A stretch of 56,288 nt of DNA from Paraspadella gotoi (GCA_051294375.1 CM119268.1:19390203-19446490); one strand, 5' to 3'; numbered from the stretch's first letter, positions 2,189 through 55,908 are shown. Program-made: numbers and translations. The notes: generated from the sequence alone by a model not told the origin.

Positions 2189-3313
2189 CTGTTTGGGATG
2201 AAGTTGGTGATGGAAAGAAGGAGTGATGATGATGACGATGATGACGATGATGATGATGACGATGATGACGATGATGATGATGATGATTATGATGATAATG
2301 ATGATGACGTTGATGATGATGATACTCTGGCACAAGAGATAGAGAGAGAGAGAGATAGAAACAAAAATAATCGTAAATCACTCAATGATTCTTTTGTAGA
2401 TGGCCTAGGATGGTGCCATCCAACGTGATAACGGAATTGAAGTTGGCGCTGACGTTGGCGCTGTTTCGTGGCTGACTGATTGTTTATTGTTTATGTAAAA
2501 GCATTCATAAACCAACTTGCTTGGTTAAAGGAAGTAAAACCTTAATAAAATAATCAAAGCATATAGATATTCCATAGGCTAATCAGCATATGCAATATCT
2601 ATATGTAAAGCCACAAACAATAGAAAAAGTAATCAATTAATTAATCAATTAATTAACAAATAAAAGTAATATCCAATAACAATTGTAAATTAGTTGATGA
2701 GATGTTCCAGTTATTTATTTCCCAAATTATGCTTCTTTTAAGCAGATGGAATAAAGAAGGGAAATCAGCTGATCTAGTTTCTTGATAGTTCTTTTGTTTT
2801 ACGTAACACAAGGCTAACAAAAGGCTAACAAAAGGCTAACAAAATGTTTAACCATAAAAGGTTTCCAAGTAGATAACAGCATATGTTGCAGTGGCGACTC
2901 TGGCCGAGTCTCAGCTCAGTGGCTGGCGAATTTGGGGTTCAAGACCACAACCCCCCCAGACGAAAATACAGGTAACAGTATTAAGCAACGATTGGGCTCA
3001 TAACTTTAAGGTATTGAACTAAAGATTAAAAAAAATTATCTAATACTAAATTTGGCTGGCGAATCTGGGGTTCAAGCCCACACTTTCTTAATTAAATGAA
3101 TTTCATGGTTTTTAATCTTCGTTCACTTGTTTGTTAGTTTATTTTTTATAAAGTTTTTGCTTAAATTCTCTTTCATTTTCTTTATTGTTGTCGCTAAACA
3201 AAAAAAGGCAAGTTAAGTATTTTCTCTTTGACTTCTCAAATTACGACTAGAAACGAAAAATCAATATCGAGAAGAAAATGGAGACATAAATAGCGAGCGA
3301 ACAAGAATAGTTA

Positions 3314-8597: not shown

Positions 8598-9390
8598 GCC
8601 CCCTTCAAGATCCCCCTTTCGCTCTTTCACTTCTTTTCTCGTTTCGGGTCGCGGCCTCCAAAAGATAAAACGAAAAAAGAAGAAGAAGAGAAGAAGAAGA
8701 AGAAGAAGAAGAAGAAGAAGAAGAGAAGAAGAAAATAGAAATATAAAGATTAAAGAGGAATGTCGGCCGTAGCCTCGTTTGGCTCATGAGTTGGACCCTT
8801 CCACCCCAAGAAGACGCCGTCTTTTTCGTTTTTTCCAATTTTTTCCGCGGGGGGTTTTTTCGTCGTCACATGAATCATCATGATCATCTTCTATTCGATC
8901 CATCAATCATCAAAAATCATAATCATCATCATCATCTTTAACATCATAATCTTCATCCATCATCATATCATCATCATCATCATCATCATAGATCATCATA
9001 TTCATCATATTCATCATTCATCATCATCATCATCTCGTCATCATGATCATCATCTTCAACTTTTTCATCATCATCCTCTTTCATCATCCTAATCATTATA
9101 ATCTCATCATTCATCATCATCATTAAATCATCATCATCTTCAACTTCTTCATCATTCATCATCATCACAATCATCATCTTCATCATTATAATCATTATCA
9201 TCATCGTCCTCATCTTCATTCTCATATCATTCATCAATTCGTCAACCCGATTCCTTAACGCATTTCTCATTCTTCTCCTTTTTACTGGAGTTGAATATCA
9301 CTCTACAAGATATTTACATATTGTGATAAGGCCCTAATGGGACTGAAGATGTACTTCTATAACTCTATAAGCCCACTCTTGCACCATGGA

Positions 9391-9465
9391 ACGGGTCCTG
9401 GCTTGGAACCAGCTTGGAGTTTTGCCACACCACAAGGCAGCTTACGGCCATCCTCACGCTTCCGC
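9391..9465 (-). ncRNA. Twister ribozyme (family A), noisy mirror copy of 21761-21839
   Basis: Reverse complement of the 21761 copy with small indels. It lies in the left arm of the large inverted duplication, so it may not be an independent locus. Confidence 0.5.
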
Positions 9466-12400
9466 AGGGCAGGTAAGCCGGGTTGGGGCTTGAAACCCGT
9501 ACCCTAGTGGTTTTAAGTCTGATGGCTTTACTCAATGAGCCACCGGGTGCACAACTGAAAGTTTGTAAAGCTTATAGACGGGGTAACCTACGCAATCCCT
9601 ACTACAAGCCCTTCCAAATACTGCGTCCAGTGGAGGGAGGGGAGCAATCTTCGGATGTCCCATGGTGGCCTGGAATCAGAAGGTTGGAATACGCTCGACA
9701 GATGGGCTCACCAGTAAGGCGTAGTGAAAATTACTAACAAAAATTCTTAAAATTAATTATGAAACCACATACCATCACGTGAACATTTAATTTGCTAAAA
9801 AAAATTAATTTTTTGTTTTTTAGTTTTCGCAGTAGGCTATATTTAATAGTATAATACTATCCTTATAGTATCGAAAATTTTCAAAATTAGGCTTTTCTTA
9901 ATTGATTGCCAATTTTGAATTCTTCGTCAAAAGTTGATAAAGAAAATATTAAATCAGTTTATTTATAATTCTTTTCATAAGTGGGTTAAAAATTAAAAAA
10001 ACTATATTAATATATAAAAAGTTAATTTTCAGCTTAAAATATAGGCTTTTTCTAATTTTTGACCCACCCTAATAAAGAATTTTTTTAATAAATTTAAAAA
10101 TTTTTTTTGGATTTCAAATTTTTTTAATAGATCTTTAAAAATTAGATAAAGCTTATTATTTACAACTTTTTACAATTTTTTTTTATTAGATAAAAATTTT
10201 TAAAAAGACTATAAATTCAGGCCCAATTGATGATGATGATTTTTAGCCGGATCTGCTCTACAGCAATTCTGGCTCTGATAATCACTTTGTCGTCCGTCGG
10301 ACCCGCCCCCAATCTTTCGGCATTCACTTATATCATTTCAGAACATCTAAGTTATGATAAATGTATACAAAAAAAATTTATTGTCGTCCATCTGTCTGTT
10401 TGTCTGTCCGTGCTGACTGTATGATGTCCAAGTCTGTCTGTCCGTCCGTCCCACCTACTTAGCAAAAAACACCAAGGTACTCATGAGTGAAATTGATTGA
10501 AATGACTTGGACTGAAATATTTGTGTATGAGAGAAAGTGTGTGATTGAGCAGGAAAGAAGATTCGTTGGAATCGTCCAAGTGCGAAAAAATTAAACAATT
10601 GGGAAAAAAACAAATAATCTAATTTCACATTTGGATTATGCTTTTTTTTATTTTTATATTAAATGCGTACAATTCAAGCTTATTTCTGGAATTAATTAAT
10701 AAAAATTAATATCGAGATTGTTGTGTAGTAAATTGGAGGCGGACAAAGTGAAATACGATTTTGACACGAATAAAAAAAATTAATATGAATAATATTAATT
10801 AATTGAATTTTCTGATGAGCTTCTTACCGCTAATGATCGTGGGCCAATCCGGCATTGTGGTGCTCAAACTTGGATTTAGGATTTTTTCTATTTTTAACCA
10901 ATTTATTGTCAAATTTTGACAAAATTGTAGTACTAACTGTTCATTTAACTTTTTCAAGCTCTATAGCGAATATGTTCTAAAAAATAAAACTTAAACTTTT
11001 TTTGTCATTTGTTATATATTAATAAATATTTAAAGGCTTCAGTGACAACACCAATGAACCAATTCAAAAAGTTTTGCATTTGAAAATCGATTTAGTAGTA
11101 GAAAGAAAAAAAAAAGATTGGAGACAATCTTAAAGTTATAAAGCGGTTTCAATTTTTGCCCGCCTGAATATACAGTTAGTATAAAAAATTAATAATCTTT
11201 AATTAATTTAAAATAATTAATAATAATAATTTAATAATTTAATAATTTTTCGTAGCACTCCAGTTGAAAGTCCCTTGTACCTGTAGTTCTACTTTTAATC
11301 AACAATTCTTCACCAATTTTACAAAAAACTTCTCTTCACTCTTTTGACGAATTAAAAAGTGTGAGAAGCGCTCCGCCACCCCGCCAGGTCCTCCGCAACG
11401 TTCTCCACCACAGTTTTCGACACGCCCCTTTCCAAAACCAAAGTCGCGCCCTCTGGCGTGCTTTTTCCGGTTCCGTCAGCGTTTAAAGGGGACGCGGATT
11501 ATGAATCATTCATTTCATCAACGGAAATCCCAGGCGTGGGGGACTGCGCCGCTGCGAGCAGATCGGAGGCAGCGCGGAAGCGGCGACTTGAGCAGGGAAG
11601 CATCGCGAGGAGGGAGGAGGAGTGGCCTTCATCGACGAAGAGAAGGGGGTTGGAATCAATGTGTAAGCTTTGAAGGTGTTTTGGCCGCCATTGGTGGCAT
11701 TTGACGTTGCCATTTTGCTGATTGGCTGAAGATCGATCGTAGAGATTGTCAGATACGAAAGACGAGTTGAATTAAATCACAGTTGTTTTCGGTCTCTCAG
11801 CGGAGCCGTCAGCTGGTGCCACGTGAGATGTGACGATTACGGCATCGCGATGATGACCTCGCGGCCAGAGTTTGGGGCGGCGGCAGCGGCCAGCAGCAGA
11901 GGCGACGGCGTGCGTTAAAAGAGGGTTTTTGGTCTGACTAAAAGGGGGAAGGAGATGAAGGCGAAGGAAATATGATTTTGAACGAAAAAGAAGGAGACTA
12001 GAAAGGGTGAGTGGCGCGAGAGTTATTTCGAGGTAAAATCGAGTGTGAAAGCTTGGTGGCTTGATCGAAATATTCAAAACGGGGATGAAAGAGAAATGTC
12101 AAAAAAGCATTACGTAGAGATAGATAAATAGATAGATAGATAAATAAAAATACAATTATTACAAACATTATCGGCACAGCCAGCGGCAAAACCCATTTTT
12201 AAAAATCTTCCGCTAAAACTTTATTAACCTTTAGTTTTCAAAATTGTGAAAGCAAAATTTCAGCTTCTGGGGAAATCAATGTCGTGAGGCGTTAAAAAAA
12301 TCTCACGGAATTCTGATTTCTCTATTTTCCGCATTCATTCTCCGGCCTCATCTTTCCACAAGGAACTTCCCCTCTAAAGGGAAATCCCATCTTGTCGATT

Positions 12401-17271: not shown

Positions 17272-20200
17272 GGAGAGAGAGGGACGAGAGATGAGAGAGA
17301 GAGAGAGCAGAGAGAGAGAGAGAGAGAGAGAGAAGAGGACGAGGAGTCCCGTAAAATGGAGGAAGAGGAAGGAGGAAAAGGGAGAAGAGGAGAAAGGAAG
17401 AGGAGGAGGTGAGAAAGGCCTTGGGGTCAAGGGTCAAATGTGACTCCTTGACTCTGCGTCTCATAATTCATCGAAAATCCGATAAAGATTTTCGAAGGTG
17501 ACGAAAAAAAACGAGTTTTTTTTTCCTTTTCTTCTTTTTTTTGGTATTTTTTTTATCAGCGTTTTAAACTTTAGTTTCTTCTTTCCCTTTTCTCTTTGCT
17601 TTCTTAAATTCTTACATCATAAACTGCTTTTTTATCATTTTTAGTTCTTTTACGAATATTCATTCTGTGCGCCTTTGTTTTTTTGGTTTTGTTTTGTTTT
17701 TTTGTATTTCTTTTTTTGTATTTCTTTTTTTTATAACTCCTTAATGTCAGTCCTTTTCTTTTTCTACTTCCCTTTTCTATTCTACCCCCTTTCCCTATTA
17801 CTCTTTCTCTTCCCCCTTTCTCTTTTCAACGTCATATCGTCGTTTTAATTCTACAAAAAAACTTTTCCCGCGTCAAAAAAAGTGACGCAAAACGTCCGCT
17901 CGTTTTACTAAAATTCTTTTGAAGAAGAAAAAAAAAGCTTTTAAGCTTAGAATGTGAAGTGACGTCTATTTTGAGGTGAAAAAAAAAGTCTTGGAATCAT
18001 AAAACCCATAAATAGGAAGGAACGCCAAAAACGTGGAAATCCGTTTTCCCTTTAAATCGAGCGGAAATATCTCGAGAGAGATAAAGTTCCACGACTCGCC
18101 GACTCCCCCAAGTGATAAATGCCGCATCCCCCGCTGAGAGTGGTTTTCCGGTGAGCGCTCGCCGATAGCATGGCCGGAAGTTGGCTTACTAGCCGAGTAC
18201 GCGAATTGCAGTGAAGGAAATTGGCTTACTAACTCATTATGCCGATATAACTGACAAATAAACCGAAATATGACGGCTGAAAAAATTGCATACTCGGGGC
18301 AGTAAGGTGCACAGTACACGCCAATAGATCTGAGTTTTTTGGCGCTCACGCTAATTGCTAATTCTACTTTCGCGAATTGTAAGCAATGTCAGGAATCTAT
18401 TTCTAAGCTGACAGCATTGCGGGCCCCTTGAATGAAATTGTCATTTTCCGCTAACTGATAGAATACAAAACGCCCGTTTCCCCACTGCCCTCCCTTATTT
18501 TTAATGTTTACAATCATTCCTTTTTGTCATTTCGTCACTTCCCCCTACATCCCGCCTCCATTTAATCGGTGACCCGCAGGGGAAGCTAATTTCTTTGCCG
18601 CTGCCCAGAGATTTTCCTTATTTTTCCACCTGCAGGGACTCCTGCCCGGGAAAAATAGATTGCAGGAGGAGCCCTGGGGTGAAAGAGTATGCCAAAGAAC
18701 CATTACGAGTTTGATGGGATTTTTTTTTTGGGGGGGAGTATGATAAAATCTAACTAACCTCTCAAGTATTCTTTATACATAAAGATTCTTTTGTCAACAT
18801 CCTTCGGATGATAGAGGACATTTCCTGATGGAATTCCTTGTCAGTTGTCATTGCCTCCTCTGATCCTCGATGGAAATCGACAAATGGGATTTCCCTTTAG
18901 AGGGGAAGTCCTTGTGGAAAAGATGAGGCGGAGAATGAATGCGGAAATAGAGAAATCAGAATTCCCGCTGAGATTTTTACGCCTCACGACATTTGATTCC
19001 CAGAAGCTGAAATTTATGCTTTACACAATTTTGAAAATAAAGGTTAATAAAGTTAGCGGAGATTTTAAAATGGGTTTGCCGCTGGGCTGTGCCGATATGT
19101 TTGTATAATTGTATTTTTATTTATCTATCTATCTATTTATCTATCTCTACGTATCCTTTTTTGACATTCTCTCTTTCAATCCCAGTTCTGAATATTTCGA
19201 TCAAGCACCCCAAGCTTTAATCGATTTTACCTCGAAATAACTCTCGCGCCACCTCACCCTTTCTAGTCTCCTTCCTTTTTCCGTTCAAAATCATATTTCT
19301 TCGCCTTCATCTCCTTTCCCCCTTTTAGATCAGACCAAAAACCTCTTTTTTAAACGCCGCCGTCGCCTCTGCTGCTGCCGCTGCCGCCGACCCCAACTCT
19401 GCCCGCGAGGTCATCATCGCCGATGCCGTAATCGTCACCAACTCCCTCACGTGCACCAGCGCGGCTCCGACTGAGAGACGAAAACAACTGTGATTTAATT
19501 CAACTCGTCTTTCGTATCTGACAATCTCTACGATCGATCTTCAAGCCATCAGCAAAATGCAACGTCAAATGCCACCAATGGCGGCCAAAACACCTTCAAA
19601 GCTTTACACATTGATTCCACCCCCTTCTCTTCCGTCGTGAAGGCCACCTCCTCCTCCTCCTCCGATGCTTCCCTGCTTCAGTCGCCGCTTCCGCCGCTGC
19701 CTCCGCTCTGTCGCAGCCGGCGCAGCCCCACGCCTGGGATTTCCGTGATGAAATGATGATTCATAAATCCGCGTCCCTTAAACGCTGACGGAACCGGAAA
19801 AAGACGCCAGAGGGCGCGACTTTGGTTTTGGAAAGGGGCGTGTCGAAAACTGTGGTGGAGAACGTTGCGGAGGACCTGGCGGGGTGGCGGAGCGCTTCTC
19901 AACCATTTTAATTCGTAAAAGAGTGAAGAGAAAGTTTTTTGTAAAATTGGTGAAGATTGTTGATTAAAAGTAGAACTACAGGTACAGGGACTTCCAACTG
20001 GAGTGATACGAAAAATTATTAAATTATTAAATTATTATTATTAAATTATTATTAAATTATTAAAGATTATTAAATTTTTTCATACTAATGTATATTCAGG
20101 CGGGCAAAAATTGAACACCTTTTATAACTTCTAGTTCTCTCAAATTTTTTTTTCTTTCTACTACTAAATCGATTTTCAATGCAACTTTTTGAATTAGTTC

Positions 20201-21004: not shown

Positions 21005-21507
21005 TCATCATCATCATTGGCTGAATTTTATAGTTTTTTAAAATTTTTATTAATAAAACAAAAAACTTGTAAAAAGTTGTAATAATAAGCTTTATCTAAT
21101 TTTTAAAGAATCTATTAAAAAAATTTGAAAAATTCAAAAAAAATTTTAAACTTTATTAAAAAAATTCCTTTATTAGGTGGGTCAAAAATTAGAAAAAGCT
21201 ATATTTTAAGCTGAAAATTAACTTTTTATATATTAAATATAGTTTTTTTAATTTTTAACCCACTTAATGAAAGAAATTATAAAAATGATTTATATTTTCT
21301 TTTATCAACTTTTGACGAAGAATTCAAATCTGCAATCAAAATTAAGAAAAGCCTATTTTGAAAATTTTCGATACTATAAGGATAGTATTATATATAAATA
21401 TAGCCTACTGCGAAAATTAAAAAACAAAATTAATTTTTTTTACAAATTAATGTTCACTGATGGTATGTGGTTCATAATTAACTTTTAGAATTTTTGTATG
21501 TAATTTT

Positions 21508-21911
21508 CACTACGCCTTACTGGTGAGCCCATCATGTCGAGCGTATTCCAACCTTCTGATTCCAGGCCCATGGACATGCCGAAGATTGCTCCCCTCCCTC
21601 CACTGGACGCAGTATTTGGAGGGCTTGTAGTTAGGGATTGCGTAGGTTCACCCCGTCTATAAGCTTTACACTTTCAGTTGTGACCCGGTGGCTCATTGAG
21701 TAAAGCCATCAGCTTAAAACCACTAGGTACCGGGTTCAAGCCCAACCCGGTACCTGCCCTGCGGGAAGCGTGAGGATGGCCGTAAGCTGCCTTGGGGGTG
21801 TGGCAAACCCTCAAGCCTGGTTCCAAGCCCAGGACCCGTTCCATGGCTGCAAGAGTGGCTTATAGAAGTTATAGAAGTTACATCTTCAGCCCACTTAGGG
21901 CCTTATTCACA
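21508..21911 (+). mobile_element. Family A element, one monomer (mirror copy at ~9322-9725 on the minus strand)
   Basis: Colinear with the 406-bp unit. The tRNA-like head at ~21682-21753 (B box GGTTCAAGCCC) is followed by the twister. Confidence 0.8.
21761..21839 (+). ncRNA. Twister ribozyme, P5-type permutation (family A); predicted cleavage U21783|A21784
   Basis: GCGGG(P5) AA GCGU(P2') GA GGAU(T1') GGCC G UAA GCU(P2) GC(T2) CUUGGGGGU..ACCCUCAAG(P3) CCUGG UUCC AA GC CCAGG(P4/L4) A CCCGU(P5'). This matches the twister core UAA / GA / YYCC-AA-GC. Confidence 0.85.
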
Positions 21912-22252
21912 TATATGTCAATATCTTGTAAGAGTGATATCACTCCAGTAAAAAGGAGAGAATGAAGAAATGCGTTTAAGAATCGGGTTGACGAATGATG
22001 ATGATTATGATGATGAAGTTGAAGATGATCATGATGAGGATGATGATGATAATGATTATAATGATGAAGATGATGATTGTGATGATGATGATGATGAAGA
22101 AGTTGAAGATGATGATGATGTTAATGATGATGATAATGATGAAGATGATAATGATTAGGATGATGAAGAGGATGATGATGAAGTTGAAGATGATGATCAT
22201 GATGACGACGATGATGATGATGATGATTATGATGATGATGAATATGATGATT

Positions 22253-23672: not shown

Positions 23673-25261
23673 GTGAGTGAGGATTGGACTTCGTGAGACG
23701 CGATTGCGATCCGTAGATTGGGATATCATCATGAAGCCAATTTCTAACTCTGATGGTTTCACGTTCACGTACATGTATATAGAAAAACAAACTAGCGAAA
23801 AAAAACAAACAAACAAACATTGAGCGTCCTCCTCAGCGTAGCTTCAGTCGCGGCGGCTGCCGCGGCTGTCGCGGCTGACTTACGAACTCGCGTCGTCGTT
23901 AACGAGTGATTAATGAAAAAAATCACGACCTCAATGTGGCCCTAATACGCCCCGAGTATGCGAGAACCCTTCCCTAAATGAAAACTCATAGTATGAATGT
24001 GACGATAAGGCAAAAGAGTGTGCGATAGTTCCTAGAATATGCAACAACACCACCTCAAATATGAAACAACCTCACCTCAAATGTGCACTTCTCGCATAAA
24101 AAAAATGTATATAACCGTCGCGAAATCTTGCGGCAAAAAAAATTGAATAAATAAATAAATAACGATGATGGGGAACAAATGGAGAGGGGAAAAGCAAGAG
24201 AGGGAATGAAGGGAAAAGAATAATAAGAAGGTTGAAGAAAATTAGGAATGGATTAAATGTGAGTTTTTAATAGATTGATATCGACAATTTCTCAAACACA
24301 AAATTAAAATTTAAAATCAATATTGTTGGATTAGAAAGAAAATAAAAGAATTAAAAATAAAAAAAATTTAAAAGGGTTTCTTCATCCTTGACATGATTCA
24401 CCCTTCGTCTCACAGAATCCCAACGTTCACTGATTCGTTGACCGTCTTTCACTTTCACTGGACGCGCGCCTCACATCTGCACTCGATTCCAAAGCAGATG
24501 TCATCGACGTACGAGAGGCTCAAGTCTTGAAGAAACAAGACTCTCTCTCTTTCTCTATTTCTTGTGATCCCCTCCAAATTGTTTCTCACATCTCACCCGC
24601 GAATTCAAGCGCGCTTTTCAGACGACTTATAATTTTAATTTTTGTTGATTTTAATTTTATTCCGTTTTTTGTTCGTTTAAAAATTTTTAGTCGGATCTGC
24701 TGATCAGCAGATTCCGAATCTGTAATCCACTTTGTCGGTCCGTCGGTCCCACCCCAAAAGTTAGTCGCTAAATAATTTTTATCATATCAGAACATCAAAT
24801 TATGATAAATTAAGCACAAAACACGATGACCGTCCGTCCATCTGTCTGTCTGTCCGACCGTCCAAAGTTACTCGTGATTTGATGGATGGATTGGAATGAA
24901 ATTTTGTGTGTGGGTAGGAAAGTGTGTGATTGAGGTGGATATCAAGTTTCGACGGAATCGTGCGAGTGGAAATGAGTTTAAATGGAAAAAACGAAAAAAT
25001 CTACTCCGTGTCCGTTCGCGAGTGACACCAAAAAAATCTTTACTATACGTTAAATATTTAATAAATATAATTCATAAGTATATCATTATTTGGAGAATTA
25101 CTGGACGTTTTTTACATATAAGTTTCATTTCGTGTTTAATTCATATTTATATTTTATTCACTATTATATATTTAAATTTTTTATCGAACATGTGGATAAG
25201 GCCCTAAGTGGGCAGAAGATGACTATCCATAACATCTATAACCCCCTCTAGCAGACATGGA

Positions 25262-25340
25262 ACGGGTCCTGGGCTTGGAACCAGGCTTGAGGGTTTGCCA
25301 TGTCCCCAAGGCGGCTTACGGCCGTCCTCACTCTTCCCAC
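25262..25340 (-). ncRNA. Twister ribozyme (family A, tandem copy 1); predicted cleavage 25318|25317
   Basis: The reverse complement reads GUGGGAAGAGU GA GGAC GGCC G UAA GCC GC CUUGGGG..CCCUCAAG CCUGG UUCC AA GC CCAGG A CCCGU. Confidence 0.85.
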
Positions 25341-25667
25341 AGGGTAGGTACCGGGTTGGGATTGAACCCGGTACCTAGTGGTCATGAGCTGATGGCTTTA
25401 CTTAATGAGCCACCGGGTCACAACTGAAAGAGTCATGCTTATAGGCGGGGGTGAACCTAGGCAATGCCCGACGACATGCCCCCAGATTGTAACCCACCCT
25501 GCACTGCTTCCAGTGGAGGGAGGGGAGCAATCTTCGTCACATCCATGGGCCTGGAATCAGAAGGTTGGAATACGTTCAACAGGATGGGCTCACCAGCGTG
25601 GATAAGGCGCTAAGTGGGCAGAAGATGACTATCTGTAACTTCTATAACCCCCTCTAGCTGACATGGA

Positions 25668-25746
25668 ACGGGTCCTGGGCTTGGAACCAGGCTTGAGGGT
25701 TTGCCATGACCCCCAGGCGGCCTACGGCCGTCCTCACACTTCCCGC
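25668..25746 (-). ncRNA. Twister ribozyme (family A, tandem copy 2; UAG instead of UAA at the cleavage loop)
   Basis: Same fold, 406 bp from copy 1. One core substitution may reduce activity. Confidence 0.75.
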
Positions 25747-28700
25747 AGGGGAGGTACCGGGTTGGGATTGAACCCGGTACCTAGTGGTCATGAGCTGATG
25801 GCTTTACTCAATGAGCCACCGGGTCACAACTGAAAGAGTCATGCTTATAAGCGGGGTGAACCTAGGCAATGCCCGACTACAAACACAATAAAATTGGCGA
25901 AAAAAGACCAAGTTTACATCACAAGATATCCCTATTAATGGCGTATCTGAATTATCGTAATGTTGAGTAATTTCTGAGTAATGATTTTTTATTTATTTTT
26001 TTAATTGTAAATGTTAAGTTTTCTTTATACAATTCGTTCAATTAGAAAAAAATGCTGTTCTGAACATGTTCCTGACTGTTTTAAATAATTATTTTATATC
26101 ATGAGTCCCAGATAATTTTTAATCTAATGGTGTCAATAAGTTTTAATAATTTTCTTTTTTTAAAAGATTGTTTTTTACTGAAGATGAATTTGGAGGACCA
26201 TTAAAGAAAGGTTTTTCATAAGTAAAAATCAAATTATTCTTATGAAATTTAAATATAATAAACGTCAAGTACCTTGCTACAGAATGAGGAAAGAAAATTT
26301 AAGAAATATTTATCCAATGAGAAATGGGACGCATTTTTTTGGTGTCACTCGCGAACGCCAAGTACTCATGAGTGGATGAGGCAATTGACTTGAAATTTTG
26401 TATGAGGGTAAGAAAGTGTGTGATTAAGCTGGAAATCAAGTTTCGATGGAATCGTTTGAGTGGAAATAAATTAAAATGGAAAAAAACATAAGTCACATTA
26501 ACTAAAATCTTTTTACTAATTTTAACCCATAATTACTCAAATTAATCATATGTTTTTGGATACATTGAGATGACATTTTGTGTGTGGGTCGAAAAGTGTG
26601 TGAAGAAGCTGGATATAAAGTTTTGAAGTTATTGGGCAAGTAGAAATGAGTTTAAATGGAAAAAAACATAAGTCACATTTATATAAATATTTTTACTAAT
26701 TATAACCAATAATTACCAAATTATTCATAATTGGATGGATAGATTGAGATAAAATTTTGTGTATGGGTAGGAAAGTGTGTGATAGAGCAGATGTAAAGTT
26801 CTGATGGAATCTAGGAGTGAAAATGAGTTTGCATGGAAAAAAAACAAAGTCAAGTTGACTTGAATTTTAATTATTTATGCTTACTCATGTTTTAAACAAT
26901 TAAATAATTAATTAAAGTAAAGAAATTATTAAATTTGAAAAATATATGTATGTTAAAAATGATTCAAATTAAAAAAATTATGCCAGTTGAAAAAAATTAT
27001 GCAAGTTAAATAATGATGTAAGATGAAAAAATTATTCAAGTTGAAAAAATGATCAATTGAAAAAAATTTGCGAGTTTAAAAAATGATGCCAGTTTAAAAA
27101 ATGCTGCAAAGTTTTTATATGTGTTTATGCCCGTATGTTCAAGTGGCTATATTATTCAAGTTGAATAAATGATGCCAGTTGAAAAAATTATACTCACTGA
27201 AAAAATGATTTAAGTTGAAAAAATGATGCAAGTGGAAAATGTGATGCAAGTTGAAAAAATAATAGCTAAAAAAATTATTTGTACTCTATTGGTAACTATT
27301 ATTAGCATAGTAACAGTTTAATTTAATCCATTGCAAGCGATTTACATATATTGGCGAAGCCATTGCACACTGCAGTGATTCAAATGGCCTCAATTTCCAG
27401 GAAAACCTCCTTTTTTTGGCAAAAACTAGTTTTTCTCGTATGCTGATTATCATAGATGACTTCTGAGGTTGTTTGAAACGTTTAAAATAATAAATAGTGA
27501 TTTGAAAAAATATGGAGAAAAAATTCATTTACCGACAAATTCGGTTTTTAAAGAAATCATATATGGTAGTTAAACGACTTGATTTATAATTTTGATATTA
27601 AATAGAAATTGACCCGACTTAATATTTTTTCTTTATTTATATTATATGTGGGAGAATGTATTAAAAAACATTGTTTGAGCACTTAGCTCTAACCTAATTT
27701 GTACCTTGTAGATTTCACTGGGCGAAGCCATTTCGCTCTCAAAAATAAGAATCAATCCAAATCACGAGATTTTAATAATAATAACTATAATCAGAGCAGA
27801 GCAACAAGAGTGAGCTACTGACAGAGAGAGCTATAGAGAGAGAGAGCTCAAACTCAAAGCTGTACAAAATAATAATTTCAATGATTAGAATTCATTTCAA
27901 AAAGTTACAAATATTTCATCATGTTACCTAATGTTTCCTTGGCAATCTCCTAAAAGTTTAAAGTTTACTTGCCATTTTATACTTCTTTAAAATTTAAATA
28001 GACCAATTAAAAACGACTTTCGACTTTTGAAAATACTACCAATAATTGGATCAGAAAAGTCACAGAATAGAGGACGAGTTTGAGAATTAAAGCTTGTAAC
28101 GTTATTGGTATTCTATATAAAACAGAATGTTAATTTCGAAAATTAATTAATTATTTATCAACTTTTAACATTATAAGTAAAAGGTGTATGTTTGCTAAAT
28201 ATAAAATCATTAATTTAATCTTTTTAAAAGCGCGCTAACAAATTAAGATCGGAAAATCGATCAAAGAAAAGAATCATACGTATGGTAATTTTTTAAGAAT
28301 ATCGAATCCTTTTTTATATTGTTTGTATGAAAAGCATGAAGAGCATATTTTTTTCTCTTCCACCCACGAGGGAGAAACAAACCTCTCAAAGACTCACCCG
28401 AAATAGAGATTTGCATATAAATTTAGAAAGAATATTTTTTTAAAACTGTTATCTTACATAAGACTTTGTACCATGACTATGGAAAGACCGAATATGTGTT
28501 TATGCCCGTATGTTCAAGTGGCTTAATCCGGATTACTGTGTATTGGTTATGATCAGTTAGGATCACAAATTGTTAAAAAAATATTATAATCTGATTAGCT
28601 GATTAACACTTAATTATCCGACATTGTTTGCTCAAACTTGTTTTTTCAATATTTAAATTTAAAAGACCTAGAAAATTCGGTTTTACGATTAACGTAATTC

Positions 28701-33638: not shown

Positions 33639-36586
33639 AAAGCTTTCAACATAGATTTGAGGGAAATGTAAGTTAAATGGTTAGGACAGCTGAAGTTTGA
33701 CAGTTTGACAGTATGACCTAAGTGAAAGGAAATGAATGGTCAAATAGAGAAAATAACATATGCAGAGGTTATAAATTAAAAGTTTACGTTTCAACAATGA
33801 ATAACCAATTTAAATGAGAAATAAATGGCTAATGGGATAAACAAAAACAGAAACCTAACTTTATGCTATAATAAAAAAAAAGTTTTCTGCTAATTTAAAC
33901 CACCAAGGAAAAGAAAGGAATTCCAACAAATAAATTACATTAATATTGAGATATTATGAAAATATAACTATCTTGTGAAGCCTGTAAAAGTTAAATAAGT
34001 AAAAAATTCGCTTATTTTATTATTGAAAAATAACATCAAGTGAAGAAGTTGAACGTCTTCCGACTCCTTTCAGTAAATATCCCTGTTCTCTATAATGTTT
34101 ACTTTTTGCTGATGGAAAAGAAAGATAAATAATTAGACTGTGATAGGGTGAATAATATTTTGTTGAATTTTTTAATCATGCTTGTAAAATCAGACAAACA
34201 AATATTTAAGTGACAAAAAATTTACATTTTCTTTATCCAAAAAACTTTAAAGTTTTACTAGAGTACAATTTAGCCTTTTTTTCAGAATCGTTAAATAAAA
34301 TTTAATTTTTATTTATTCTTTTGGGTTTTAAAATTTTTTAAATTTTAGTTTTAAAATTCATTATAATTTTGACCTAGTTTGACACTCACCCTGTAAAGAT
34401 GTTTCAGCAAAAATAATTATAAAGTTGTATCTGATTATGGCTTCATTTTGGTACTATTACCATCCCTTTATCTTTGTTCCTTCAAAAGATATTAATAAAA
34501 ATCAGTTTTTACTTTTCTTTTAATTGGTTTAATATAAAAAAATTCTCAATAATAAAAAGAAAAATAAAACGAGCTCCATGGACACAAGGCTTTCAGAATC
34601 TCATAATTTGAAGTATCATTTATAATGCTAACATACCGTAATCCCATTTATAATTTTAAAAAAGTAAAATTTCCTTTTCATTTCTATAGTAAAAATGAGG
34701 TTTGAAAATCCTCCGGAGACGAGTAGTTCAGTTCCCCTGGCTTGTTTCAGAGTAAAATCTTTATCAAATGCCACATGAAAACATTAACGAGCTCTTGAGA
34801 TGCAAAGCTATCGGAATCGTGTGTTATTACAACTGTTTTCTACCGGAATTTCTTGCAGGCTCGTTTGTAAAGTTGGGAAGTCAGATTCGAACGGAAATCT
34901 CTATTAGAAAAATGTTTAATTTTTTTTAAGCAAGATTTTCGCCTAAACTATGCCTTACTATCCACTAGACCAGCCTCTAAAATCATAAACCAATAAGAAC
35001 GCTTCCCCTTTTCTCTCTTTAGAATGATGGTGGAGCAAGTCCCAGGAAAGTGCGAACCTTCGGATCAACTGGCCGAGCCTGATTTCCGCGGCTGGGTCGA
35101 CGAGGCTGACCGACTGTTTCGCGAGCGCCGCTACGAAGTGTTGAAGGAAAAACTGGATGCCGAATACGCAAGTGGGCGCTGGAGGAATAAATGGAGAGAT
35201 TGTGCTTGGAAAGAAATATTGTTCTAGGAGTGTCGAAGATGAAAAAAATTTTGTGAATTTTTTTTTGGTATCCTTCCGTTTTACACATCTTAACTTACCT
35301 TTCTTTTTTCCTCCCCCCCCAACAAAAAAAGAGACGAAAGGCAAGTACCCTAAGCGAGACCCACAACTTCTCTGGCGGATGGCGAGACTCTACTTTCTTC
35401 TCGGCAACGAAGTCGAGGTCAACACACTCAAGTCTTGGAAGGCGGCGCTTGTGTGAGTATTGGCTGAGTGGGAGGTGTAGAGGAAGGAAGGATGCGGTGT
35501 CATGTTGAGTAGCTCCTTCATGACGTCGAATGAAAATTCACGGAGAATATTTGAAAAGTTTATTACTTTTTACGGTACATGAAAATCCTGATAAACTAAT
35601 CGGGACTAGGAATGAATCAGTTTCAAAAACAGAAGCTGAAAATTGATCTTAACTTGCTCGATTAGAAATAAAGAACAATAACTTTACTTTATAAAGAGGG
35701 CAGAAATTAATTTTTAACCTTATGTTGTTTAGCTGCTCCGACAACACAAGCATCCTTCTCCCGATTACGTTATAAAAATATGTAATTGAATATAAATATC
35801 GAATACAAGAAATAATATAAAGGAAATAATAATTAAATCTAATACATAGTGATATATATGTAGTCGGGCATGGCAAAACTTTTACATTTTTTTAAAAATT
35901 TAATTTAATTTAGTCTAATATAGTAAAATAAATAATTGAACAGACAGTGATAATTGTTATGTGTTAGTGACAGAACCGTTCATGTAAGCAGTCCATGAGC
36001 TTCGGATCAGGCTGTAATACCGTGTTACAGGGGGTTAAGCGCTCCGTCCCTTTAACTCTTAACTCTTGACCACCCGGGCTATAACGCCGGGCTATAACGC
36101 CGGGCTATAACGCCGGGCTATAACGCCGGGCTATAACGCCGGGCTATAACGCCGGGCTATAACGCGGCTATATATAACGCCGGGCTATAAACGCCGGGCT
36201 ATAACGCGGGCTATAACGGCCGGGCTATAACGCCGGCTATAACCCGGCTATAGCGGGCTATAACGCCGGGCTATAAACGCAAGCCGGCTATAACGCCGGG
36301 CTATAACGCCGGGCTATAACAACGCCGGACGCTTGGGTTGGGAGGCGAATGACTTGCCTCCGGCACCAATGGCCGCTGATGAACGGTTGGTGGATTTTAG
36401 TCCACCATATAATCTTTCCAAAAAAGAATATTAAGTGTTGCGTGAAAAATGTCAAAAACTGCGATGGTAAAGCAGCAACAATGGATGTGGGTAGCATTGG
36501 TGTTATTACGTCAATGGCGACGGAAAAGAAAAACGGGAAAAGTTTTGTCTCGTAGTTTTTTCGACCTTTCGCCCCATTTTTTTCCC

Positions 36587-38737: not shown

Positions 38738-41145
38738 TTAAAAAACAATTTCCAATGAATGTGATTTTTGTTTTTCCCTTGCCGCTCGCTTGATTCCACC
38801 AGAACTTTATGTCAAGCCCACACTTTCCAACCAACACACAATATTTCATCTCAATTAATCCATTTAATTGTGAATAATTTGAATAATTGTGAGTAAATAT
38901 AATTCGATAAATTCAAAAAATGTCACTTTTGTTTTTTCCATTTAAACTCAATTCCACTCGCATGATTCCTTCAAAACTTTATATCCAGCTCAATTACACA
39001 GTTTCTTAACCAGACACTAAATTTCAGCTATATCCATCCCTCCAATTATGATTAATTAGAGTTAATGTAGGTTAAAAGATTCAATTAAATGTAACTAATG
39101 TTTTTTCATTTAAACTCATTTCCACTCACATGATTCCATTGAAACTTTATATCCTGCTTAGTCACACAATTTTCCAACCTCACAAAATTTCATTCCAATC
39201 CATTCTTCTAATCACGAGTAATTGGAGTTTTTTGGAAAGGCGGGACGGACAGACAGACGGACGGACATCATTTTTTTTCATAATTTATCATAATTAGATG
39301 TTCTGACATGATTTGAGTGAGTGCCCGACAAGATTTAAGGGGGGGGACCGACGGACCGACAAAGTGGATTATAGAGTCGGGATCTACCTGTAAGCAGATC
39401 CGACTAAAAACCCCACGACGAAGATCCTCTAATCAGCGGCGTCGTTAGCGATTCGTCTTAAAGTTATTAAAGTTGTCTCTTTCTTCTTTTTTCTCCATCA
39501 ACTGAGAACATTCTTCTTCTCCTGCTTCTTCTTCTTCTTCTTCTTCTTCTTCTTCTTCTTCTTCTTCTTCTTCTTCTTCTTCTTCTTCTTCTACAGAGTT
39601 CGGACTTGAATCTTACCCCCTTAATTGATCCTTAATTAATTTTGTTTTACAAAATTGTTTTATTTTTTATATCAGAAGAATCGATAAGGATTTTTCTATC
39701 TTTTGGATTGTAATTAGTTTTGCTATATCGAAAAACATTAGTATGGGAAGCAACTGAAAACCATGAGTCATGTTTTCTCCGCACCCAAAAGCCAAATAGT
39801 TAAAAATCAACTACATATAAATATTTGCACTCCTGCAAAATTGGGTGGGTTTCCAAAACTTAGTGGGTTTCTTTATAGTGATATTGAGAAAGTATTGTTT
39901 ATGGATTTCTCAAAAAAAAGTATAATATCTAGCATAAGCCAAAATTGTATAACAAGTAATATCAATCAATTCGTACTTTAAAATTTTATATCTTAAAAAA
40001 ATTGAAGCTGCAGTATGCTGCAGTAACTTGAAATACCGTACAATTATCGGGATTAGGTCCCTGACATATAAACCATCGATCTATGTTATTTCTACGGCAT
40101 AATATACTATGTTACTAGTATAGAGTAAGATTGCCTTTAATATAATTTCTACGAATTTTGGCCTCAGGACATTATGCCCCATCTAATACAGTATCATCTA
40201 AATTCATTTGCATATTGCAGTATGGGGCGAATTAAATGTAACACTCAACAGTTGACCTTGCAAAAACAAGTTTGAGCAAACAATGTCGGATCTGCCTACA
40301 ATAATTAATTAATTAATTAATTAATTAATTAATTAATTAATTAATTAATTAATCGATAAATTAATTAATTAACTAATTTTAATATGTAATAGTTAATTTT
40401 AAATTTATATTTATGTTTACATTTTATCAAAACAAACAAATATCCTCTTGTAGTGGTAGTATTTCATACCCCACTACTCGTCCGGAGAATCAGCAGCCTA
40501 TGGCGCCGGAGGTAGCACGAGCTCCTCCCAACCCAAAGGACTCGGGTTCGCGCCCTGCTGATTCACACAAGTAAAAGCGGGACGGGGCGTCTAACCCACC
40601 TGTAGTGTCGGACTACAGCCCGATCCGAAGTTCGGACCTTGTGTGCAACGGACGGTAAACTGCTCGCGGCATCGTCTTCCACATTGGTGAGCCCACACGA
40701 ACACGCTGGCACGTTAATACACCTCTGCCCGCCATGTTAACACACCTCTGCCCTCGACCATCGTGTGTGAAGACGGGAGCAGGAATAGGCAGCCCCTCCT
40801 AAGAGTGCTCGGGCACAACGCGTGCATCATAGCCATCCACACTTGCGCGGTGTGTGATGCCTCGGGGGGGATGTGTAGTGGTAGTATTTCATACCCCACT
40901 ACTCGTCCAAGAATCAGCAGCACCTATGGCGCCGGAGGTAGCACGAGCTCCTCCCAACCCAAAAGGCTCGGTTCGCGCCCTGCTTATTCACCAAGTAAAA
41001 GCGGGATGGGGCGTCTAACCCACCTGTAATGTCGGACTACAGCTCGATCCAAAGTTCGGGACCTTGTGTGCAACGGACGGTAAACTGCTCGCGGGGCATC
41101 GTCTTCCACACTCTATTTTATTTTATGTCTCCTTCTCTTCTCTCA

Positions 41146-41183
<38 letters not shown>

Positions 41184-42715
41184 TTATGCAATTGCGACGA
41201 TCTTTATGCTTTTAAGATTTTTTTAACTTGCATCATTTTTTCACATTAATTAATTAATTAATTAATTAAAACATTTATTAGTAATCATTAATATTAAAGA
41301 TTCAATTAAATGTGACTTATTGTTTTTTCCATCTAAACTCATTTCCACTGGCACAATTCCGTCAAAACTTTATATAATTATTATATAATATAAATATTTT
41401 AAAAGCTTCAGTGCAATAACCCAATGAACTAATTCAAAAAGTTACATTGAAAATCGATTTAGTAAGTAGAAGGAAAAAAGAAATTTTTTGAGAGAACTAG
41501 AAGTTATAAAAAGTGTTCAATTTTGGCCCGCCTTACTAGATATATTGCAATGAAAATTGGTACAACCAATATAAAAATTATCCATTCATTTAATAAATAA
41601 GCTATCTTGCCCCTGACTTTGGACAGGCTTGGTGGTTTAAAGGCCTTCATCACTCTTACAAGATAATAATATAGCAGGTCCCTGCAAGCTTTTAAATCAA
41701 GACTCTCTCACAGTCTCGTTTATTCAATCCCAGAGTACCGTGGCTTCCCTATCAATGAAGTGGAAAATATTTCAAAGAATGTTTCAATTGTATTAAAAGA
41801 CCACTCCCTTAAGTATTAGATCGGGGAATACTTATTGTACTCCGCACTAGCATCAAAATACAAGGAGCTGAATTTTATGAAATTGGTACAACCAATATAT
41901 AAAAATTATCCATGTCATTTAATAAATAAGCTATCTTGCCCCTGACTTTTGGACAGGCCTTTGGTGGTTTTAAGGCCTCCATCACCTTACAAGATAATGA
42001 CATAGCAGGTCCTGCAAGCTTTCAATCAAGACTCTCTCACAGTCTCGTTTATTCAATCCCAGAGTACCTGGCTTCCCTATCAATGAAGTGGAAAATATTA
42101 CAAAGAATGTTTCAATTGTATGAAAAAACCACTCCCTTAAGTATTAGATCGGGGAATAATTATTGTACTCCGCACTAGCATCAAAATACAAGGAGCTGAA
42201 TTTTATGAAATTGGTACAAACCAATATAAAAATTATCCATTCATTTAATAAATAAGCTATCTTGCCCCTGACTTTGGACAGGCTTTGGTGGTTTAAGGCC
42301 TCCATCACTCTTACAAGATAATGACATAGCAGGTCCTGCAAGCTTTCCAATCAAGACTCTCTCACAGTCTCGTTTATTCAATCCCAGAGTACCTGGCTTC
42401 CCTATCAATGAAGTGGAAAAATATATCAAAAATGTTTCAATTGTAATGAAAAGACCACTCCCTTAAGTATTAGATGGGGAATACTTATTGTACTCCGCAC
42501 TAGCATCAAAATACAAGGAGATGAATTTTAATGAAATTGGTACAACCAATTATAAAATTATCCATTCATTTAATAAATAAGCTATCTGCATGTGATTAAA
42601 CAATGTTATCGGAATAATAATTTTATCAATTTTATGTATTTTGTAAGTATTTTAAGTATTTTTATTCAGAGTGAGTAAAATAACAACTTTTTTATTCGCT
42701 AATTTTTATCTCGGA

Positions 42716-42821: not shown

Positions 42822-44185
42822 CTCTCTCTCTCTTTGCAATTGCAACGATCCTTATGCTCATTTTTTTGCTAAAATAAGTAAGTAAAATAAGTAAAATAAG
42901 TAAAAAGATTCAAGTTAATGTAACTCATATTTTTTTCATTTAAACTCATTTCCACTCGTACGTTTCCACCGAAACTTTATATCAAGCATCGTTACACATT
43001 TTTCTACCCACACAAAAAAATTTGAACTCAATCTATCCATCCAATTATGATTAATTAGAGTACTTATTGGTTAAAATAAAGTAAAAATATTTTAGTAAAT
43101 GCGACTTATGTTTTTTTTCATTTCCACTCACACGATTCCGTCGAAACTTTATATCCAGCTTTATCACACACTTTCCTACCCACACACAAAATTTCATTCC
43201 AATCCAACCAGCCAATCACGAGTTATTGGAGCTTTTGTGCTAAGGTGGGACGGATGGACAGATTGATTGACTGATTAATTAATTATTGATTAATTAATTG
43301 ACTAATTGATTAATTAACTGATTAATTATTTGATTTATTAATACATCCTGTATATACATTTAATATAAAAGGAAAAATAATCATAATCAATTAGTGAAAC
43401 AGGTTTTTAGTTTTTTTCTATTTAAACTCATTTCCACTCAAAAGATTCCATCGATACTTGGTTTCCTGTTCAATCACACACTTTTCTACTCACATACAAA
43501 ATTCACAGGTCAATCGATAATTAAGTGGTAATAAGCTAACTTGGTCAACTTGCATAATTTTAATCAACTTGCATAATTTGGTCAACTGACATAATTTGGT
43601 CTACTGACATAATTTGGTCAACTGACATAATTTGGTCAACTGACATAATTTGGTCAACTTGAAGAGGCTGGTTTTACAGGGCGCCACACCCAGCGATGTC
43701 ACCTCGTGGCGAAAGCGAGACAGCATGTTCATGTAGTCCAGAGCTTTGAATCTTGCAGTAGGCCCATGCCTACAGGCGGGTTACCCGGTCCATCCCACTT
43801 TCTACTTGACAACCTCATGGCTCGAACCAGGGACGCACATTGGGATGGTGCATTAGTCCACTGAGCCACTGAGGCGCTGCGAAAGAAACAGCTTTAATCC
43901 ATCTGTGGTGATAGGACCACCAGACACTGACATAATTTGGTCAACTGACATAATTTGATCAATTAAGATAATTTGGTCAACCGGCATAATTTGGTCAACT
44001 GGCATAATTTTATCAACTGCCTAATTTGGACAACTGGCATAATTTGGTCAACAGGCATAATTTGATCAACTTGCAGAACTTGATCAACTTGCAGAATTTG
44101 GTCAACTGGCATAATTTGCTCAACTTTAAGAATTTGGTCAACTGGAATATTTTTGTCAATTGGCATAATTTGGTCAATCAATCAG

Positions 44186-46783: not shown

Positions 46784-46837
<54 letters not shown>

Positions 46838-47050
46838 CCTCTGCTCTCCTCAATTTTTACTTCCTTCCCTTTTTCCCTTTCACTCACTCTCTCTTTTTTC
46901 TTCCTTACACTCTCTATCTTTTTCTTCTCCCNNNNNNNNNNNNNNNNNNNNNNNNNGAGTGAGGAAGAAAAAGAATAGAGAGTGTAAGGAAGAAAAAAGA
47001 GAGAGTGAGTGAAAGGGAAAAAGGGAAGGAAGTAAAAATTGAGGAGAGCA

Positions 47051-47139
<89 letters not shown>

Positions 47140-54172: not shown

Positions 54173-55908
54173 AAGTAGGCGAAAATCTCGCTTAAAAAAA
54201 AATTCAACATTTTTCTAATAGAGATTTCTGTTCGAATCTGACTGCCTAACTTTACAAACGACATTGGGAGAAATTCCGGTAGAAAACAGTTGTAAAACGA
54301 TTCCGATAGCGTTGCATCTCAAGAGCTCGACTTTTTGTTCTTGTAGCATTTGATAAAGAATTTACTACCAAACAAGCCAGGGGAAATGAACTACTCATCT
54401 CCGGAGGATTTTCAAAACTCATTTTTATTATAGAAATGAAAGGGAAATTTCACTTTTTTAAAATTACAAACAGGATTACAGTATGTTAGCATTATAAATG
54501 GTACTTCAAAAGCCTCGTGTCCCGAGAGCTCGACTTTTTTTCCTTTTTAGTATTGACCATTTTTTTATATTAAACCATCCTGGTAAAGTGAATTGGTCCA
54601 GTTTTCATCACGAAATTTTTATTTAAAAAGAATTTAAAAGGAAGGTTGAGAAAAAAAACCTGATTTTTCCTAATATCTTTTGAAGGAACAAAGATAAAGG
54701 GATGGCAATAGTACCAAAATGAAGACATAATCATAGGGCACATACAAGATACAATTTTAGAATTATTTTTGCTGAAACCTCTTAACAGGGTGAGTGTCAA
54801 ACTAAGTCAAAATTAGAATTAATTTTAAAACTAATGACACCTCATTAAAATAAATAAAAATTAAATTCTTTTTAATGATTCTGAAATAAAAAAGGCTACA
54901 TTGTACTCTAGTAAAGCTTTAAAGTTTTTTAGATTAAGAAAATATAAGTTTTTTTTTCACTTAAATGCTTGTCTGATTTTACAAGCATGCTTACAAAATT
55001 ATAAAAAATGTTATTCACCCCATAGCCTAAGTATTTATCTTTCTTTTCCATCAACAAAAAGTAAACATTATTTTATGTTAGAGTACAGGGATGTTTACTG
55101 AAAGGAGCCGGAAAACGTTCAACTTCTTCAGTTTGATGTTATTTTTCAATAATAAAAAAGGCAAATTTTTTGATTATTTAACTCTCACAGGCTTCACAAG
55201 ACATAACACTTTCATAATATCACAATGTTAATGTAATTCATTTTATATTTTTACCCAGAAATTATAAAATAATAAAATTATAGATTCCTTTCGTTCGTTT
55301 AAGGAAAAAAAATTAACAAGCGGAATTATAAGTTTGAAAGAGGAAGTCAGAATCGGCGAGAATCTTAAAAGGCGAGAATGTTGAAAAAATGGAGATGAAA
55401 TTTGGTTGTTTTTCGTCGATTTCTTCTAAATCCATTACATTATTCCAGTCATTCTCTATCTAAAAATATAAAAATATTATGAAAATAGGTTTGGGATCGA
55501 CTTTCGGAATTTGGATCTAGTGGATGGGACGATTGACTTAAATTTTTTTATTTGGGTAGAAAAGTGTATGATTAAACTGGAAATAAAGTTCAATGGAATC
55601 GATTGAGTGGAAATGAGTTTAAAGGGAAAAAACAAAGGACCTGTTTCACTAATTGAATATGCTTCTTTTTCTTTTTATTTTAAATGTAAATGCAAGATGT
55701 CCAATAATTATTCAGATGTCCAATAATTATTCAGTTAGTTAATAATTAATAATTTATCATAATTAGATGTTCTAACATGATATAAGTGAATGCCCGACAA
55801 GATTGAGGGGGCGGAACGACGGACCGACAAAGTGAATTATAGAAAAATGCACGACGCTTAAATACAGTTTGGAATGAAGATTCACTATCATAGCAATTAT
55901 GATAATGA

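Follow-up and report, generated by a model that had tools for sequence, protein, structure and literature searches.

How does a twister-like ribozyme build its P1 helix when the P1 slot contains only a six-nucleotide, self-complementary linker? This question is raised by the window (the whole 56,288-nucleotide stretch of DNA that was analyzed), in which motif searches and alignment identify 11 twister-like copies in five families (A–E); a covariance model constructed from these 11 copies finds no additional copies in the window. A first-pass annotation had proposed that a palindromic 4-mer replaces P1 in every family and that P1 can form only between two ribozymes, for example, those in adjacent tandem units.

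The P1 slot contains a self-complementary hexamer

The four palindromic 4-mers in that annotation are located between the 3′ strand of T1 and the UAA triplet, as it had described:

21778 (plus strand), 25729, 25323 and 9449 (minus strand): GGCC, family A
40587 and 41011 (plus strand): GCGT, family B
43788 (minus strand): CCGG, family C
36042 (minus strand): GCGC, family D

Family E, which was absent from that list, has GGCC. The linker had been described as the 4-mer plus one base; this is off by one. The T1 pseudoknot of twister has three Watson–Crick pairs (PMC5408937), and in the Rfam Twister-P5 alignment P1 begins directly after the 3-nt T1 strand (with three P1 pairs and a 0-nt loop in family E), so the linker is a hexamer; a 4-bp T1 was rejected on the same grounds. 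The hexamers are CGGCCG or TGGCCG (A), GGCGTC (B, with two G.U pairs in the duplex), ACCGGG (C), AGCGCT (D), and AGGCCT (E). The claim that every family is self-complementary holds for the full hexamer in families A, B, D, and E but for only the central 4-mer in family C, in which the ends are A.G.

In four sequencing runs, ACCGGG is the majority form of family C (275, 44, 34, and 9 contigs), and the lone hexamer variant among the 23 listed for this family (2, 2, 2, and 1 contigs) changes the A.G ends to A–U. For family B (918, 781, 407, and 77 contigs, two of the runs being a single sample that is possibly the source of the window), no variant is located at 40581–40592 among the 40 of 67 variants listed.

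Over the five families, 14 of 15 possible pairs form, so the earlier argument that the palindromes exceed chance stands (P = 1e-5 with uniform letters, 3e-5 with pooled letters, and 1e-3 with shuffles of each hexamer's own letters). The cores of families B, C, and D are 65–66% alike, so the five families are not five independent events; if just three lineages are counted, P is 0.002–0.02. In a 12-row alignment (the 11 window copies and one metagenome locus, L012; vide infra), the three hexamer pairs all covary and 35 of 36 cells are paired, with related copies counting many times. The innermost two bases, which no hairpin could use, form a complementary pair in every family and also in L012. 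The palindrome fills the P1 slot exactly, with zero spare bases on either side, and the self-duplex energies of the hexamers (−6 to −11 kcal/mol) are in the top 0.2–3.4% of hexamers.

The motifs are a variant of the type-P5 twister

All five families have the type-P5 strand order, and the open P5, the conserved G–A, the UAA, and the U-NNN-AA loop are present; a pattern that was drawn from these motifs has 8 matches in comparison with 0.37 expected. In the 12-row alignment, 94.5% of the 128 cells in P2, T1, T2, and the hexamer are paired, and both sides change in 7 of 11 pairs, a value that is reached in none of 500 shuffles (related copies again count many times). T1 (3 bp; 97.2% of cells paired) and T2 (2 bp; 90%) both have changes on both sides; P2 has three pairs and a bulge in place of four pairs.

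No motif in the window reaches an Rfam gathering score (37.6 for the Twister-P5 family, RF02684): family E scores 25.8 and 23.4 bits, family A scores 17.0 bits, and family B has no twister match even at an E-value of 10. Family B contains a P3 that is absent from the Rfam P5 consensus. Thus, the motifs are classed as a twister variant and not as members of RF02684; the Rfam comparisons gave no hammerhead match. Among 31 phage hits of the A/E-type pattern, two pass all of the pairing tests, both with ordinary P1 hairpins (L130 and L132, phage type-P5 twisters with a short P2), and 29 fail; one of these two scores 40.5 bits, above the threshold. Because both phage loci pass and one of them exceeds the threshold, the three-pair P2 with a bulge is a natural twister subtype.

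With a control pattern for type-P5 twisters in phages and prokaryotes, 38 of 47 loci pass the T1 and P4 tests and nine fail; 36 of the 38, many of them near-identical, have P1 hairpins of 14–26 nt. The remaining two, both from phages, have a non-palindromic 6-nt linker that joins two type-P1 twisters in series; back-to-back type-P1 twisters with a 6-nt joint are located at L041:262-361 (also in L053, L082, and L088). A metagenome scan that was blind to the hexamer identified 14 loci, of which only L012 passes T1, T2, and P4 by eye (13 fail), and L012 is the sole one of the 14 with a perfect hexamer palindrome. This locus (L012:41-121, minus strand) is on a metagenome contig near a CT microsatellite and has the twister subtype of the window with an AT-rich hexamer palindrome. 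The other covariance-model matches on L001–L057 were rejected as a consequence of the search pattern. A viral scan with the B/C/D pattern gave 0 matches. With a fixed 6-nt linker, the viral scan gave 43 loci and no clear type-P5 twister; these include two tandem type-P1 twisters and three equally high-scoring loci with a wobble-only P4.

Families A and B are short LTR elements with a motif in each LTR

The two family-B motifs are located in the two LTRs of a single element:

40445–40448, plus strand: left copy of the 4-bp target-site duplication (TSD) CTCT, from comparison of the flanks
40449–41110, plus strand: complete family-B element, a Helenus-like, non-coding TRIM of 662 bp, from its TG...CA ends, flanks, and repeat match
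40449–40683, plus strand: 5′ LTR, 235 bp, in a form that is also dispersed as a solo LTR in the sequencing runs
40501–40555, plus strand: tRNA-type promoter-like region in the 5′ LTR, from box A-like to box B-like
40577–40635, plus strand: twister-like core 1, from a pairing scan and alignment, with P5 arms that reach about 40564–40650
40586–40591, plus strand: hexamer of core 1 in the P1 slot (central 4-mer 40587–40590), with a predicted cut between 40592 and 40593
40593–41016, plus strand: predicted 424-nt unit between both cut sites, a candidate circular RNA
40684–40873, plus strand: internal region, 190 bp
40685–40696, plus strand: PBS-like motif that starts with TGG, one base past the 5′ LTR
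40864–40871, plus strand: polypurine tract (PPT) preceding the 3′ LTR, from sequence
40874–41110, plus strand: 3′ LTR, 237 bp, which contains a promoter-like region at 40927–40980
41001–41059, plus strand: twister-like core 2, with its hexamer at 41010–41015 and a predicted cut at 41016/41017
41111–41114, plus strand: right copy of the TSD CTCT, from comparison of the flanks

The LTRs are identical in 224 of 240 alignment columns. In core 1, the type-P5 order is P2 3′ strand, G–A, T1 3′ strand, hexamer, UAA, P2 5′ strand, T2, P3, P4, and T1 5′ strand; relative to core 1, the T1 of core 2 has a compensatory change from C–G to U–A. Ten bases of the PBS-like motif are identical in families A and B, and its four matches in the window are all within A/B elements. 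The promoter-like region at 40501–40555 (fold z −4.7) is not a full tRNA in a tRNA search of the window. The box A–box B pattern, drawn from these elements, has six matches in the window in comparison with 0.04 expected; five of the six are in A/B LTRs, where the boxes are upstream of the twister-like motif. The sixth is at 2892–2946, which, like about 3050–3080, is a decayed tRNA-type promoter head with no twister behind it.

The sequencing-run evidence is from contigs only and has no bearing on expression or cut ends. Long contigs carry just 40449–40683 between unrelated flanks; loose contig ends occur at 40682–40683, and pieces that extend from 40449/50 to 40682/3 are embedded in longer contigs. 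The summed depth of the LTR core in these contigs, which is not a copy number, is roughly 10–40-fold that of the interior; this excess together with the LTR-only pieces is expected for many solo LTRs. A first reading of the family-B region as tandem SINE-like units was abandoned in view of the TG...CA ends, PBS-like motif, PPT, and TSD; a joint from 40873 to 40455 in the contigs was rejected as proof of a tandem array (it is the junction between the interior and the 3′ LTR).

Family A includes one complete element, also with one motif per LTR:

25191–25881, minus strand: complete family-A element with TSD TGTT; LTRs at 25881–25597 and 25476–25191, internal region of 120 bp, PBS-like motif at 25595, hexamers at 25730–25725 and 25324–25319, predicted 406-nt unit
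21520–21911, plus strand: family-A copy without most of its 5′ LTR; 3′ LTR at 21626–21911, hexamer at 21777–21782
9325–9714, minus strand: family-A copy with flanks 91% like those of the copy at 21520 (not independent); hexamer at 9450–9445

In the complete family-A element, the 5′ LTR ends with CG, the polypurine tract is shorter than in family B, and the hexamer of the upstream motif (25730–25725) is followed by UAG instead of UAA. Thus, both of the complete elements have a 4-bp TSD (CTCT in B, TGTT in A). Pfam detected no retroelement domains in 18 of the 64 open frames, and no helper was found. The first-pass annotation had named adjacent tandem units as an example of possible partners; in families A and B, the adjacent copies are instead the two LTRs of one TRIM, and a true tandem arrangement occurs only in family E.

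Several observations concern the context of the family-A copies and the window in general. The regions 9232–9840 and 21400–22000 are an inverted duplicate, 91% alike including the flanks with many small indels, that is, a segmental copy or an assembly artefact. At 21914–21938 and 9300–9325, the truncated A copy is followed at its 3′ end by a 25-nt family-E-like piece, whose match lies just upstream of the E twister core; this could reflect an insertion beside a remnant of family E or template switching. The N content of the window is 1213. An inverted repeat at 46791–47101 (155-nt arms, 1 nt between them, 92% complementary) is largely microsatellite, and inverted dispersed repeat pairs are located at 11343–11465 and 19798–19920 and at 34607–34820 and 54297–54510.

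The other three families

43660–43926, minus strand: family C, probable solo LTR (TG...CA ends, box A/B-like motifs, twister-like core); hexamer at 43789–43784
35962–36410, minus strand: family D, decayed probable solo LTR with an expansion of a 13-mer; 5′ end uncertain
about 36000–36050, minus strand: family-D twister-like core with damaged T2/P4; hexamer at 36043–36038
41554–42587, minus strand: family E, AT-rich tandem array of 3.2 units of 325 nt with a twister-like core in each unit; hexamers at 42301–42296 and 41978–41973, third copy damaged

From their sequences, families C and D are probably solo LTRs; the box A–box B pattern of family C was recognized by alignment. In family D, the stem-loop at the position of box B is expanded to about 19 copies of a 13-mer (36074–36320, minus strand), that is, a satellite born within an LTR promoter region. 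Family E, the sole true tandem array, has neither LTR hallmarks nor a PBS-like motif and contains four T4 runs. There are no T4 runs inside families A, B, or C (for family B, none on the sense strand of 40449–41110); the probability of this by chance is 0.42–0.58 per family, so it is weak as evidence.

Proposed pairing of the hexamers between two LTRs

The idea that P1 is paired in trans is supported by the complementarity of the innermost pair throughout the families, the covariation of all three pairs, and the hairpin P1 of ordinary type-P5 twisters. The stronger claim that P1 can form only between two ribozymes was overstated: four of the five families can form a monomeric 1-bp stem with a tetraloop. 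With moderate confidence, we propose that P1 is formed between the motifs by pairing of one LTR's hexamer with that of the other and that the predicted double cut would free a 424-nt unit that is likely circularized; that this pairing promotes cleavage seems to us somewhat probable as well.

Pol III transcription would likely start at the tRNA-type promoter in the 5′ LTR and include both motifs, as the lack of a T4 run before the flank weakly suggests. The self-complementary hexamer in LTR 1 would then pair with that in LTR 2 so that the strands are swapped: the downstream half of motif 1 would combine with the upstream half of motif 2, as would the upstream half of motif 1 with the downstream half of motif 2, and one 6-bp P1 would serve two active sites. 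Because transcription reaches motif 2 about 420 nt after motif 1, motif 1 would have to unfold before the swap. In a transcript with two LTRs, the pairing would be intramolecular, whereas solo-LTR transcripts or circles would have to pair with a second molecule; the cutting of complete elements would thus likely be favored. Two cuts would yield a unit of 424 nt in family B and of 406 nt in family A, in both cases without terminal redundancy; the freed unit of family B would likely circularize and be copied by a Gypsy-type reverse transcriptase, the type of helper suggested by the Helenus paper (PMC10886601).

In folding calculations from which pseudoknots are excluded, the swapped arrangement, which is nested, scores lower than two monomers by 5.8 kcal/mol in family B and by 11.8 kcal/mol in family A; in the same calculations, the two-LTR RNA folded without constraints is 18–34 kcal/mol below either ribozyme arrangement. 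In the predicted circles, the hexamer is largely sequestered in A (0.98–0.99 for five bases) and B (0.74) and less so in E, and this might be a second way of keeping a circle uncut; the folds of the circular units are mildly stable (z −0.9 to −3.2, from crude shuffles).

The published properties of P1 bear on how strict the requirement for a partner could be. Twisters that lack P1 cleave at nearly the wild-type rate (PMC5408937), and in the CHiTA screen of >2,600 natural candidates cleavage was unaffected by the length, stability, or flaws of P1 (PMC11662667); a 1-bp stem and a tetraloop may, therefore, suffice for a monomer to cut unaided, the palindrome may have a role in packaging or folding, and the earlier suggestion that cleavage is restricted to multimers is weakened. 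(The dimer in the rice twister crystal was described as an artefact; PMC5408937.) Strict dependence of cleavage on the dimer is a possibility that we entertain with some doubt. Equally tentative is our most far-reaching reading, that is, a class of twister LTR retrozymes with a tRNA-type promoter that are obligate strand-swapped dimers with a single shared palindromic P1; only complete elements would be cut and circularized; the solo LTRs, which are far more numerous, would remain uncut, as would host transcripts with a solo LTR and circles once they are made; and LTR elements, a tandem repeat, and Naiad would all have the same subtype.

Other explanations for the palindrome

Each twister might instead cut alone, with the 1-bp stem and tetraloop, and the palindrome might be kept for another RNA–RNA contact, for example, RNA dimerization for packaging in helper particles, similar to that at a retroviral dimer-initiation loop, or a kissing interaction that promotes template switching. 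We regard this explanation as unlikely but deserving of attention: a self-sufficient monomer agrees with the dispensability of P1 (PMC5408937, PMC11662667), the self-duplex energies of the hexamers are sufficient for a dimer signal, and families A–D are LTR-type elements; however, the palindrome coincides precisely with the P1 slot, without an extra base at either end, and it is present as well in the family-E array, which is not an LTR element, and in the tails of Naiad, neither of which relies on LTR particles.

Alternatively, the paired motifs might act mainly to make a 3′ end: if only the motif in the downstream LTR is cut efficiently, the product would be linear, with a terminal redundancy of about 105 nt, and would follow the ordinary LTR route, with no circle. 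In favor of this are the linear RNA of Cassandra, which has short repeats at its ends (PMC10886601), the presence of exactly two LTRs in each complete element, the UAG that replaces UAA in the upstream motif of the complete family-A element, and the lack in families A, B, and C of a T4 run to end a Pol III transcript. The last point is weak, given the probabilities above, and the UAG may be decay after insertion; moreover, LTR replication copies one LTR to both ends, so the two motifs would be identical at the outset, and two cuts would be expected of a symmetric dimer. We consider this explanation improbable.

That the motifs are inactive relics in LTRs, with palindromes that reflect common descent, a high G+C content, or effects at the level of DNA, would agree with the Rfam scores below threshold, the short P2, and the few independent lineages (P up to 0.02), but we judge it very improbable given that families only 50–66% alike have compensatory changes in T1, T2, P2, and the hexamer, and given the phage motif with the same short P2 that passes Rfam, the G.U pairs of A and B that are sensible only in RNA, and the few core variants among those listed for hundreds of contigs.

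Novelty and implications

In the literature searched (subscription papers were mostly outside it), we found no account of a TRIM that carries a twister or of a twister that is dimeric in nature; the accessible portions of PMC8501958, PMC10085705, PMC7761336, and bioRxiv 10.64898/2026.07.22.740005 describe neither. Within that literature, pairing of the LTR hexamers would join three known ideas (TRIMp3, the LTR retrozyme, and the palindrome-paired ribozyme) with a ribozyme class that has not been reported in that role. If the proposal is true, it would provide the first case in nature of twisters acting in pairs, by the trick of the dimeric hammerhead in an unrelated fold; an RNA-processing step for Helenus-type elements; and LTR retrozymes beyond hammerheads and, with an animal host as the 4-bp TSD suggests, beyond plants. 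The reason that nature retains P1, although it is dispensable in vitro, becomes a testable question, and a ribozyme that requires two copies per RNA would be a compact AND gate for RNA circularization tools.

Comparison with known systems

As judged from sequence features, the family-B element is built like a Helenus TRIM, and both it and family A fit the definition of animal Helenus (TRIMp3; Kojima 2024; PMC10886601), that is, a 4-bp TSD of the animal type, tRNA-type boxes in the LTRs, and a length of 311–1263 bp. The features shared with this definition are two LTRs with tRNA-type boxes, the PBS-like motif, the PPT, the 4-bp TSD, a length within the range, and many solo LTRs; the difference is the twister-like motif in each LTR of A and B. 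The Helenus paper contains no mention of twister, and motif searches of its consensus file, in which line breaks can hide matches, gave 14 places, none of which is a twister by eye.

The motifs resemble type-P5 twisters (RF02684, clan CL00120) in strand order, the G–A before a 3-nt T1, the UAA, two pseudoknots, P4, and the open P5. They differ in the 6-nt self-complementary linker (in cis, no more than a 1-bp stem with a tetraloop) in place of a 14–26-nt P1 hairpin, in the three-pair P2 with a bulge, in the P3 of families A–D, and in scores that are all below the gathering threshold.

Two other retroelements contain related motifs. Three published Naiad consensus tails (Naiad_Mphi, Naiad_Bpla, and the preceding record; supplement of PMC8557442, by eye) have the twister subtype of the window and palindromes in their linkers: they share the 3-nt P2 5′ strand, the AC/GU T2, and the P5 order, and the P4 arms of family E match those of two of the three tails. 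Their linkers differ (20–23 nt with two palindromes each), as does the host, an autonomous Penelope-like element; Naiads lack canonical hammerheads (PMC8557442), and that paper does not mention twister. The T-variant twisters of Schistosoma Perere-3 (PMC8501958) are likewise natural, have an altered P1, and are located in a retroelement; however, they are type-P1 and at the 5′ end of a non-LTR element, and the target site supplies the 5′ strand of P1. Neither dimer nor palindrome is mentioned in that paper.

Family E, with 3.2 units of 325 nt and no PBS or PPT, resembles non-LTR retrozymes (the tandem 150–450-bp class), but it matches Twister-P5 and not the type I hammerhead. A parallel to the hexamer is provided by the dimeric type I hammerheads of amphibian retrozymes and Penelope-like elements (PMC7229834; PMC6765202), in which one helix is also a single pair with a palindromic tetraloop and there are two copies per transcript; amphibian hammerheads with this 1-bp stem cut far better as dimers (PMC7229834). 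The ribozyme class is different, and the monomers of these hammerheads are limited by the weakness of helix III, whereas P1 of twister is reported to be dispensable.

Plant LTR retrozymes have a hammerhead in each LTR; the unit between the two LTR ribozymes is freed and circularized, and its missing terminal redundancy is solved by circularization and reverse transcription around the circle (PMC4918200; Cervera et al., 2016). The A and B elements share with them the lack of coding capacity, one ribozyme motif per LTR, a PBS-like motif, the PPT, the 4-bp TSD, and a predicted unit without terminal redundancy; they differ in having a twister-like motif instead of a type III hammerhead, a tRNA-type promoter in the LTR, and a predicted unit of 406–424 nt instead of about 700–780 nt (in the Jatropha example). 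By this analogy, an A/B element would work like an LTR retrozyme without being a member of that group.
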